A DNA stretch of 16,328 nt, taken from the IMG/VR virus record IMGVR_UViG_2609459856_000003, positions 1 through 16,328 of that record; one strand, 5' to 3'. Positions 3,001 through 6,000 of this stretch are shown piece by piece. Source of the DNA: a virus. Lineage: Duplodnaviria; Heunggongvirae; Uroviricota; Caudoviricetes. The first letter of the stretch is position 1; each line of letters begins with the position of its first letter. The position numbers are program-made.

Positions 3001-6000
3001 TAATCCCCGGAGAAAGTCGAAACACGGCTGTAAGCCATACCCGCCATCGCATAAGCACTGAACCATTCATTCACGCGTACAGATGGCCCCGCCATCATGC
3101 TGAACCAGCGGTTACGCACTGAATCTTCATGCCAGCGGGTATCGCTGTAATGCGTTTTTTGCTCATCTTTGGCATTGGCATAACTGAATGACGTCACCAG
3201 CCCCAGCGTGTCCGTAAATTCATAACGGTATTTCACGTTAATGCCCTTCAGGTCATCACTGCCTGGCATATCAGTATGGGTCTGAAGATACCCGGCGCTT
3301 AGTGTGGACTGATGCTCTGCTGCGCTCGCTGGCGTACCAGCGGCAACCAGCCAGACTACTGCGGACAGAATAACAGCACATAATTTACGCATAATTACCT
3401 CTCGCTTTTCTGCAATAAAAAAGGCGTCATTTCTGACGCCCGTATCTGGGTTATAAAATTCAGCTGATACTGATGCCTGCGGTGGCTTTCTTCATCACCA
3501 CAACCAGCAAATCGCTGATACTTGCTGTGGGATACCAGCCATTTACCCACCATGCTGATACCGAAAACTCCAGTGTCATGTGACCGTGACCGGCAGGCAT
3601 ATCAATAACGCCACTGTAAATCAGCGTATTATCCAGCGCGGTACGGTTATAAATTTCAGCACCGTTTTTCCGCACTATCAGACGGCATGAGGAGTAAATA
3701 TCAGTATGCTCTCTCTCATGCTTAGCGCCACTGAATGCCACCGCCGGAATAACAATTTGCCGGTCAAACGGCTGATCGTCATAAACCCTGACGGTAATGG
3801 TCCCTGATGGCCACCGCTCCGGTGCTCGGGAGTCACGGGGGAAAGCTTTGCCCACTGTTTTAACGAGATCGCCTTCAATCTGGTTCGCGGACAGTTTTCC
3901 CAGAACCCGGCAGTTCTCGTTAATCGTGACGTTGTTGAGCGTCCCGGAGTTCGCATTCACGTTACCGCTGATATCGGCATTTTTCGCCGTCAGCCGCCCG
4001 TCCGGTGTCAGGGAAAATGCCGGCGGATTTCCACCGCTGGTAATGGTGGGAGCCGTCAGGCGTTTCAGGAACACGTCGTTCATGAATATCTGGTTGCCCT
4101 GCGCCACAAACATCGGCGTTTCATTCCCGTTTGCCGGGTCAATAAACGCGATACGGTTAGCGGCAACCAGAAACTGGCTCAGTTTGCCTTCCTCTGTGTC
4201 CTCCATGCTGAGGCCAATACCCGCGACATAATGTTTGCCGTCTTTGGTCTGCTCAATTTTGACGCCCCACATGGCATTCCACTTATCACTGGCGTCCTTC
4301 CACTCTTTCGAAAACTCCTCCAGTTTGCTGGCGTTATCCTCCGTCAGCTCGACTTTTTCCAGCAGCTCCTTGCCGAGATGGGATTCGGTTATCTGGCCTT
4401 TGAAAAAATCCAGGTAACCTTCCGCATCATCGCTCGCCCGACCAACAGCCTCCACGAATGCCGATTTGCCGACGGTGTTCACACTGCGGATATAAAAGTA
4501 ATAATCACGACCCGGTTTGATATTGATACTGGCGGCTATCCAGTACAGCCCCGTGCCAAGATAGCGGGCTGTGGTTTCAACCTGCCTGATATCGGTAATC
4601 CGCTTTTCCGAGAACCAGAACTCAAACTGTACCGTCGGATCATAAACCGCAAGATGCGGCGTTGCGGTTATCTGAAAATAGCCCGGCGTCAGCTCAATCC
4701 GCGACGGTGCTGCCGGTGCGGCGATCCGGAACGATACCGACGCCGGATCGCCCTGCTGTCCCCACGCATTTACCGCCCGGACCGTCAGCCTGTAGTTCCC
4801 CAGCGCCAGTTGCGTGAAGCGGTATGTGGTTTCCGTCGTCCTGGCCGTGCTGACCAGCCGCTCACTGCCGTCATCCGCTGCCACGGTCAGGCGAAGCATA
4901 AAGCTCACGCCCTTCACCACCTTCGGCGTGTCCCATCGCGCCAGCACCTGATATTCCCCGCTGTCTGCGGTGACTTCGGCAGTCAGATGCTGCACTGCTG
5001 GCGGCGTGACACCATTCACCGTGCCGCTCTGGTCACCGTCAAAGTGCGCCCCGTTATCCACGATGGCTTCTTTCTCCGGTACATGCTGCACGGCAGTGAT
5101 GGCATACGTGCCGTCGTCGTTCTCACGGATACTCACACAGCGGAACAGGCGCTGGCGCAGCGTCGGCAGCTTCAGCCCCCACACGCTGTATCCGGCAACG
5201 CCGTCAGGAACCCGGCTCACTTTCACCTTCACGCCGTCGGTGACGGACTGGACCTCCACGCTGACCGGATTGCCACTTCCGTCAACCAGGCTTATCAGCG
5301 TGGTGCCGGAGGATGGCAGCGTGATTTCACGGTCGAGCGTCAGCGTCCGGGTCTGGCTGTTCACCGCCAGCACACGCCCGCCGATGCTGATCCCCGCATA
5401 GTCATCATCACAGATTTCAATGACATCGCCCGGTACATGGCGAAGCCCTTCGGCACCCACGCTGAAGTCCACGGTCTGCGTCTCCAGCAGTTCCGTTTTA
5501 ATCAGCCACAGCCCGGCGCGGTGTGCCTGCCCCCGGCTGGTACAGCCAAAGGCATCCATCTTCGTGACGTTACGACCGTAACGGGCAATGGCCTGCGTAT
5601 CCTCCACAAGCTCTGTCGCCGTCTCCCAGCCGTTATCCGGGTCAATCCAGTTCACCTCAACGGCATTATGGCGGTCCTTCAGGGCGCTGAAGCTGTAGCG
5701 GAACGGCGCGCCATCATCCGGCATCACCACATTACTGCGGTTATAGGTCCACACCTTATCCGACGGTCGGTCCTGCACGAACGTCAGCGTCTGCCCGTTC
5801 CATACCGGCATACAGCGCATCGCCGAGCAGAAATCGCTGAGAACATCCCACGCCTTACGCTGTGTGGTCAGCCAGGCATTACAGGTGATGCGCGGCTCCG
5901 TGCCGCCAAAACCATTCGGTACCAACTGGTCGCAGTACTGGCCGATAACGTACAGCGCCCATTTGTCCACATCTGCCGCACCAAGACGTTTCCCCATGCC

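Follow-up and report, generated by a model that had tools for sequence, protein, structure and literature searches.

A lambda-like J protein with an exchanged receptor-binding tip, most likely directed at OmpC rather than LamB

The C-terminal tip of the tail protein J (gpJ) determines the range of cells open to injection by a lambda-like phage. The J protein of phage 434 is an OmpC binder, and the lambda h434 hybrids are a classical example of host-range exchange. The receptor-binding domain of lambda gpJ itself is an immunoglobulin (Ig)-like domain whose four bottom loops, L1 to L4, insert into the outer-membrane protein LamB, and whose top shifts inward on binding and so starts the opening of the tail (Ge and Wang, PMC11101478); lambda gpJ structures are available for the closed state (PDB 8xck) and for the open state with LamB (PDB 8xcj). 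Here we describe the J gene of a 16,328 nucleotide (nt) stretch of DNA from a virus of the Caudoviricetes (IMG/VR record IMGVR_UViG_2609459856_000003, positions 1 to 16,328), referred to below as the window. An earlier reading, made from the sequence alone, had noted that the product of this gene resembles lambda gpJ except in its C-terminal region.

Tips other than that of lambda have been characterised by Brödel et al. (Nature 2024, PMC11338833), who fused the C-terminal parts of natural gpJ proteins to lambda gpJ at amino acid (aa) 964 and assayed the chimeras in recipients that lacked the lamB as well as the ompC gene and were complemented by OmpC variants. Chimera 1A2 delivered DNA to lamB-deleted cells in an OmpC-dependent manner, using the OmpC of Escherichia coli EDL933 and many others but not that of K-12 MG1655, whereas chimera A8 used both the MG1655 and EDL933 proteins; jointly the two covered 21 of the 23 OmpC variants tested, and wild-type lambda J gave about 2–3% delivery in lamB-deleted recipients (PMC11338833). 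Two PDB entries concern A8, one closed (9wca, ‘A8 gpJ 713’) and one open with OmpC G17 of E. coli EDL933 (9wcb); a literature search found no paper describing them. Phage phi330, in turn, does not plate on a K-12 ompC knockout but is rescued by ompC in trans, and a published model places its hairpin E953–S962 in the OmpC barrel and its residues A1015–P1020 on the barrel rim (PMC12502783). As the phi330 tip is 99% identical to that of A8, OmpC use by this class, a sister of the one described below, is confirmed independently.

A lambda-type J body joined to a tip of another class

Gene J, encoding the tip attachment or central tail fibre protein, occupies positions 3460–6855 of the minus strand as an intact open reading frame (ORF) of 3396 nt, with 1131 codons and a stop. 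Its product carries six Pfam domains in the lambda order, FNIII-A_GpJ, Phage-tail_3, Ig_J, Ig_J_second, Phage_Tail_Tip and Ig_GpJ_C (PF24801, PF13550, PF24421, PF24489, PF09327 and PF12421), all full length and far above their cut-offs, and the PDB entry for lambda gpJ (8iyk, chain J) matches it over aa 1–1130 (E = 0). On the same strand, Pfam matches to a tape measure protein, Phage_min_tail, Phage_tail_L, JAB/NlpC-P60 (K) and Lambda_tail_I precede J, and matches to Ail_Lom and phage_tail_N follow it. Domain series and gene position both identify a lambda-type tip attachment protein and, judged by sequence, the gene is J of a tail cluster of lambda-like type, with the tape measure gene, M, L, K and I upstream and lom and the side-tail-fibre gene downstream. 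Two ORFs lying inside J, at 3678–3956 (minus strand, other frame) and 3797–4231 (plus strand), were set aside as chance ORFs because J itself runs unbroken, has homology to lambda J along its whole length and is under purifying selection.

In a global alignment with lambda J (NC_001416, 1132 aa), 925 of the first 950 residues are identical (97.4%), as are 97.0% of aa 1–982, but over aa 983–1131 the figure is 62 of 149 (41.6%), with a lone one-residue gap. The interval 3460–3950, which covers aa 969–1131 and the stop codon, is 45.4% identical, and the contrast between body and tip is highly significant (p = 2.5e-63, Fisher exact test). The sequence-only reading had put very high identity over roughly the first 950 residues and a marked drop over the last ~150, with related ..KK..GIS.. 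tails at the ends of both proteins (that of lambda being VQVMVIKKQALGISVV), and the alignment agrees on every count. In 45-nt windows, DNA identity to lambda falls from 0.84–1.0 to about 0.5 across J nt 2925–2970 (aa 976–990), so that identity drops sharply rather than running uniformly through the C-terminus; the motif NVTINENC is the final conserved stretch before the break. The diverged region had been placed at 3460–3950, which is correct as a location, although the exact break lies at ~3909–3923 rather than 3950, slightly inside that interval. Upstream of it is the lambda-like body (aa 1 to ~978; 3923–6855, minus strand), delimited by blastn and amino acid identity and comprising hub domains, fibronectin type III (FNIII) domains, the helical shaft and most of the beta-prism fibre. 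Downstream is the exchanged receptor-binding tip (aa 983–1131; 3463–3909, minus strand), assigned to the 1A2/VT1-Sakai/2G7b type by amino acid identities, synonymous divergence, blastn and a structural model.

The two parts also differ in synonymous divergence from lambda. Over aa 1–982 the synonymous rate (dS) is 0.20 and the non-synonymous rate (dN) 0.015 (dN/dS ~0.08), as against a saturated dS of ~2.3 and a dN of 0.58 in the tip. A single blastn block to lambda, at 94.5% nt identity, spans window positions 3923–7161 (the end of I and the J body), and the next long block, at 83%, starts at 2920, where lom ends and the side fibre gene begins; the tip has no blastn homology to lambda. The tip DNA is, however, 96–98% identical to that of phages 2G7b, PhiR55_1 and PhiR5_1 and of dozens of long-tailed Shiga toxin (Stx) 1a and 2a O157 prophages, VT1-Sakai among them. 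The lambda-like J of 2G7b carries the same tip (99% aa), whilst VT1-Sakai J reverses the lambda pattern: its body is just 68–80% identical to that of the window and its tip 97%, where lambda has a body at 97% and a tip at ~41%. The adjoining lom gene (2793–3392, minus strand; Ail/Lom outer-membrane protein, Pfam Ail_Lom, 423 bits) lies in the same non-lambda stretch, its product matching lambda Lom at 92 of 207 residues (44%) and VT1-Sakai Lom at 183 of 199 (92%), so that, relative to lambda, ~1 kb comprising the tip and most of lom is of different origin; this non-lambda stretch runs roughly from aa 978 of J across most of lom.

The saturated dS of the tip, the abrupt boundary, the non-lambda lom and the presence of the same tip on divergent J bodies together indicate that the break from lambda is, at the level of sequence, the exchange of a module and not local fast evolution. 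Some 978 residues of lambda-type body thus pass, within ..NVTINENC, the last stretch of the beta-prism fibre to be conserved, into an Ig-like receptor-binding tip of a different and anciently diverged allele class. VT1-Sakai, 2G7b, the engineered 1A2 gpJ and many long-tailed Stx phages carry tips of that class.

To compare tip classes, the last 149–155 residues of each J were aligned. The window tip is 99% identical to that of 2G7b, 97% to VT1-Sakai (145 of 149 aa, 97.3%, no gaps), 64% to ev017, 59% to phi330, 58% to A8, 41% to lambda and 40% to 434. High identity over its whole length, loop lengths included, makes it an allele of the 1A2/VT1-Sakai type, from which VT1-Sakai differs by four substitutions (R1048K, W1103L, G1106N and S1129T, window residue first). 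It is not the LamB-binding allele of lambda, to which it is 41.6% identical without nucleotide homology and with variable loops differing in sequence and length, nor is it of the A8/phi330 type, given 58–59% identity and a hairpin six residues shorter than the ENFNSNNQQS hairpin of that class. Residues conserved over all tip classes include DDxxFDRQ, NG, DMPxG, and the KK and G of the ..KK..GIS.. tail, and K1122, K1123 and G1127 are invariant in 19 tip sequences from several classes; window J carries every residue that is invariant across classes. Where the classes differ, in both sequence and length, is at the four sites termed here loop a, hairpin b, loop c and loop d.

The prevalence of the two alleles was assessed by querying 5426 complete E. 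coli genomes with the window tip DNA (463 nt) and the lambda J tip DNA. The window tip matches 3382 genomes, where the median copy number is two and almost every best match is 90–99% identical. The lambda tip matches 98, all at 99% identity or more, and the five matches listed come from laboratory strains, of which three are DE3 derivatives. At roughly 35 times the spread of the lambda LamB tip in these genomes, the window’s OmpC-type tip is the prevalent natural form, and it is the lambda tip that is unusual, an exception among natural E. coli J tips. To call the C-terminus ‘diverged’, as the sequence-only reading did, holds with lambda as the reference, yet the window-type tip is the common allele of E. 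coli prophages and that of lambda the rare one.

Fold of the tip and its probable receptor

The tip contains the Ig_GpJ_C domain (PF12421), an Ig-like beta-sandwich, at aa 1001–1131 (3463–3855, minus strand), scoring 128.2 bits against a cut-off of 26.2 and covering positions 1–135 of the 135 in the profile. An AlphaFold2 (AF2) model of aa 956–1131, a monomer of moderate confidence (predicted local distance difference test score, pLDDT, 79.6), is likewise a beta-sandwich. Foldseek matches this model to 9wca, 9wcb, 8xck and 8xcj with template modelling (TM) scores of 0.70–0.73 and E values of 2e-19 to 1e-17, the top matches being 9wcb and 8xcj (TM 0.72–0.73), and by sequence the tip matches 9wca at E = 4e-59 and lambda 8xcj at E = 1e-37. 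With the full PF12421 profile and an Ig-like fold as in the lambda and A8 tips, it is a gpJ C-terminal receptor-binding domain.

In the model, a to d are alternate loops and the conserved motifs fall in the loops between them (all coordinates on the minus strand). Loop a (aa 1004–1017; 3805–3846) is an interstrand loop that varies in length and sequence with tip class, and its equivalent in phi330, T918–Y921, is a segment named in the phi330 OmpC model (PMC12502783). Beta-hairpin b (aa 1043–1052; 3700–3729) lies between model strands E89-93 and E96-108 and includes R1048, which is K in 1A2 and VT1-Sakai; it is six residues shorter than its A8/phi330 equivalent E953–S962. Loop c (aa 1074–1076, LDN; 3628–3636) is short and, given the strand alternation of the model, would lie at the same end of the sandwich as a, b and d. 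Loop d (aa 1103–1115; 3511–3549), the longest in the model, includes W1103 and G1106 (L and N in 1A2 and VT1-Sakai) and aligns with A1015–P1020 of phi330, just as hairpin b aligns with E953–S962. The conserved C-terminal strand and tail (aa 1116–1131; 3463–3510; model strand E161-167), bearing the ..KK..GIS.. motif, align with the tails of lambda, 434 and A8. Among 25 distinct natural sequences of the window’s class, variation clusters in hairpin b, the AGHGHM turn and loop d (these sequences come from a tip-only protein-database search that returned mostly fragments and was used just for this purpose and for the input alignment of the model). This is circumstantially the pattern expected of receptor-contact loops facing a polymorphic porin.

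By analogy with the lambda gpJ–LamB and A8 gpJ–OmpC complexes, three tips would trimerise at the end of the central fibre and the variable bottom loops a, b, c and d would dock on the trimeric porin, whilst the conserved loops at the opposite end, with the KK..GIS tail, would hold the trimer together, relay the binding signal up the fibre and open the tail. We infer this division of labour among the loops from that of lambda.

That a diverged C-terminus suggests a different outer-membrane receptor had been proposed in the sequence-only reading, and the proposal gains support from the 97% identity of the tip to an allele that uses OmpC without LamB. The 1A2 and A8 DNA sequences in the supplement of PMC11338833 are machine-read text with dropped and added letters and 10–13 frameshifts, and a frameshift-tolerant alignment was used for them. 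The noise ceiling is given by the true A8 protein (PDB 9wca), which matches the extracted A8 DNA at 139 of 145 positions (95.9%). The VT1-Sakai tip matches the extracted 1A2 DNA at 138 of 144 (95.8%), so that 1A2 is the VT1-Sakai allele within noise. For the window tip the count is 134 of 144, the four extra mismatches being exactly R1048K, W1103L, G1106N and S1129T, which makes it a 97.3%-identical variant of an OmpC-using tip. Set against J proteins of known receptor, the tip is 97% identical to VT1-Sakai (1A2 within noise), 58–59% to A8/phi330 and 40% to 434, all with OmpC as receptor, and 41.6% to lambda, with LamB. Its own receptor is, on these sequence comparisons, most likely OmpC, with a preference for EDL933-like, non-K-12 variants, and not LamB; OmpC use and LamB independence are carried over to it from the published experiments with the 97%-identical allele.

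The hosts recorded for laboratory-propagated phages with this tip agree, circumstantially, with a preference for non-K-12 OmpC. GenBank host fields give E. coli C for PhiR55_1 and PhiR5_1 and ECOR13 for PhiR46_1, PhiR47_1, PhiR49_2 and PhiR40_1, K-12 for none, and the listed K-12-propagated relatives PhiR11_1 and mEp332 have 434-type tips. E. coli C has an intact ompC gene (376 aa), whose product, closest to EDL933 OmpC among solved structures, shares with that protein L4 (without the FTSG insertion of K-12) and L8 (VINGRN, as against RG in K-12). E. coli C OmpC also has eight additional residues in the loop after ..TDDQN. A search for receptor data on natural phages with this tip found none for 2G7b (Mathieu et al. 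2020, text and supplements) or the PhiR phages of the Laub laboratory (Brenes and Laub 2025 lay outside its scope). The available part of a 2026 receptor-prediction preprint on gpJ of Drexlerviridae and relatives has nothing on lambda-type tips, the lambda tip having been left out of its alignment as too dissimilar. Reference 47 of PMC12502783, cited there for OmpC use by long-tailed Stx phages, was set aside as irrelevant, being concerned with the T-even phage PP01.

Several points weigh against this assignment. Three of the four differences from 1A2/VT1-Sakai fall in loops predicted to touch the receptor, for which reason the range of OmpC variants used and, less likely, the receptor itself could differ. 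The 1A2 sequence was read from extracted PDF text with ~4% errors, and its equality with the Sakai allele holds just within this error rate. In the source-data sheet behind Extended Data Fig. 2 (PMC11338833), the 1A2 and A8 values of panel C (OmpC-EDL933) equal those of panel B (OmpC-MG1655), with 1A2 at 2%; this is probably a copy error in that sheet, since the main text and two other sheets (~98% 1A2 delivery with EDL933 OmpC) disagree with it. The host fields are weak evidence, covering six phages where many other factors limit plating on K-12, and the bottom and top orientation of the loops comes from strand alternation in a moderate-confidence monomer model rather than from coordinates. 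We think it rather unlikely, but worth stating, that the R1048, W1103, G1106 variant recognises another set of OmpC variants, for example some that are barred to 1A2. Such a variant would mark a single step in an arms race fought at fine grain, with J loops set against polymorphic OmpC loops, an idea that fits the concentration of within-class variation in exactly these J loops.

Among other explanations, binding to a different outer-membrane protein such as OmpF, FadL, FhuA or BtuB, by way of the contact-loop substitutions relative to 1A2, is unlikely but has the most to be said for it. R1048, W1103 and G1106 lie in the hypervariable hairpin b and loop d, a few point mutations in J allow lambda to use OmpF, and FadL and LamB have reportedly served some Stx2 phages. 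Each variant residue is, however, also present in other natural members of the same class, and the 1A2 and A8/phi330 classes both use OmpC at a mutual identity of 58%, so OmpC use tolerates far more than four changes. There is still less reason to suppose that the tip continues to bind LamB and has diverged through neutral or immune-evasion drift on the same receptor: porins are structurally alike and the fold is shared with the LamB-binding domain of lambda (TM 0.73 to 8xcj), but the tip is only 41.6% identical to that of lambda, all four variable loops have been rebuilt, indels included, and the near-identical 1A2 tip delivers to lamB-deleted cells and needs OmpC, where lambda J manages ~2–3% (PMC11338833).

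That J is a decayed prophage remnant with a non-functional tip is very unlikely. Many prophage J genes are broken, and VT1-Sakai J is annotated as split by mutation, but here the 1131-codon frame is intact, all six gpJ Pfam domains are full length, the body has a dN/dS of ~0.08, all cross-class invariant tip residues are present and the flanking tail genes also look intact. Least credible of all is that the low identity arose in place on the lambda J lineage, by rapid positive selection and without recombination. Receptor-binding loops are typical targets of diversifying selection and within-class variation is indeed concentrated in loops, yet dS is ~2.3 (saturated) in the tip as against 0.20 in the body, the transition is complete within ~45 nt, the adjoining lom is also non-lambda (44% aa) and the same tip DNA (96–98% nt) is found on J bodies that are 68–80% identical. 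On account of the saturation, the abrupt boundary and the divergent bodies, local accelerated evolution was rejected as the cause of the break. It therefore seems highly probable to us that J is a mosaic of a lambda-type body and a tip of the VT1-Sakai/2G7b/1A2 class that most likely binds OmpC, with non-K-12 variants preferred, and not LamB.

Neighbouring tail genes in the window

Just past the J stop codon, a consensus scan found a terminator-like hairpin with a T-run (3422–3441, minus strand), and a second follows directly past lom (2745–2766, minus strand); two such structures compare with 0.8 expected in shuffled sequence. With hairpins directly past J and directly past itself, lom is bracketed as a separate unit. 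In phage 434, a terminator is annotated at the place that corresponds to the hairpin past J. The side-tail-fibre gene (366–2734, minus strand; 696 aa, with a prophage tail fibre N-terminal domain) is of low GC content in its distal part (37–44%), with a strong AT skew of −0.52 at 2001–2500, and is followed by a 93-aa ORF without a Pfam match. Phage 2G7b aligns to the side-tail-fibre region at 88–91% nt identity.

Upstream, the tape measure protein (1077 aa; 9241–12474, minus strand) has Pfam HK97-type TLTM, TMP_3 and lambda-C domains. No DNA homology between its gene and lambda was seen in a comparison with a lambda stretch that starts at position 15000 and does not contain the gpH gene; within that stretch, just window 3923–7161 (the end of I and the J body) was lambda-like upstream of the tip. 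A 2026 paper links the tape-measure clade to ManYZ dependence, and for this reason the route of entry across the inner membrane may differ from that of lambda.

A G-like ORF ends at 12817–12835 (minus strand) in ..GAG GTT AAA AAA AAG TAG, with a run of eight A just ahead of the stop, and a T-like ORF (12515–12805) follows it in another frame. From its sequence, 12817–12835 resembles the programmed −1 frameshift site usual for the tail chaperones G and GT, the slippery sequence presumably differing from that of lambda.

Comparison with described J proteins

The exchange of the J tip is phage mosaicism of an ordinary kind that has been described before, and a textbook example of how host range is exchanged in modules at the J C-terminus. 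The tip allele is itself already known: it is abundant, is present in sequenced phages and has been characterised as the 1A2 chimera, and close relatives have been structurally solved. What the OmpC-type (1A2 class) tip predicts is a host range for the prophage, namely strains with EDL933-like OmpC, independently of the maltose-regulated LamB. Swaps of the same type already serve to redirect lambda particles that are to deliver genes in the gut.

The closest full-length relative of window J found in the phage collection is that of 2G7b (LR595866), a temperate coliphage of the infant gut, at 96.2% nt identity over the gene. Its body is 97.6% and its tip 99% identical at the amino acid level, and its J is succeeded by lom and then a side tail fibre gene, as in the window. 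In the tip it has L where the window has W (1103) and T where the window has S (1129).

The tips of 1A2 (Brödel et al., PMC11338833) and VT1-Sakai (Sp15, E. coli O157:H7) belong to the same allele class as the window tip and differ from it at R1048K, W1103L, G1106N and S1129T, three of which are in predicted contact loops. Like window J, 1A2 combines a lambda-type body with a tip of this class, and the natural junction at ~aa 978–983 lies near the engineered one at aa 964; the printed 1A2 DNA nevertheless differs from the window tip DNA at many synonymous sites, and the window mosaic is a natural one. VT1-Sakai J has a divergent body and is annotated as a pair of overlapping fragments, ‘truncated by a mutation’, whereas window J is intact.

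The A8 and phi330 J proteins (PDB 9wca, 9wcb; PMC12502783) have the same domain and fold as the window tip, with a nearly identical N-terminal strand and tail, and most likely share its receptor protein, OmpC. They are just 58–59% identical to it over the tip, however, their hairpin b is six residues longer and their loops a and d differ, and they use K-12 OmpC where 1A2-type tips do not. Phage 434 J likewise consists of a lambda-like body and a swapped tip, but of a separate class, its tip being 40% identical to that of the window with longer loops a and b. Lambda gpJ (PDB 8iyk, 8xcj and 8xck), the LamB binder, has the same domain order and tip fold as window J, is 97% identical to it over aa 1–982 and shares the motifs DDxPFDRQ, NG, DMPAG and KK..GIS, but differs in all the variable loops of the tip (41.6% identity) and in the adjoining lom (44% aa).

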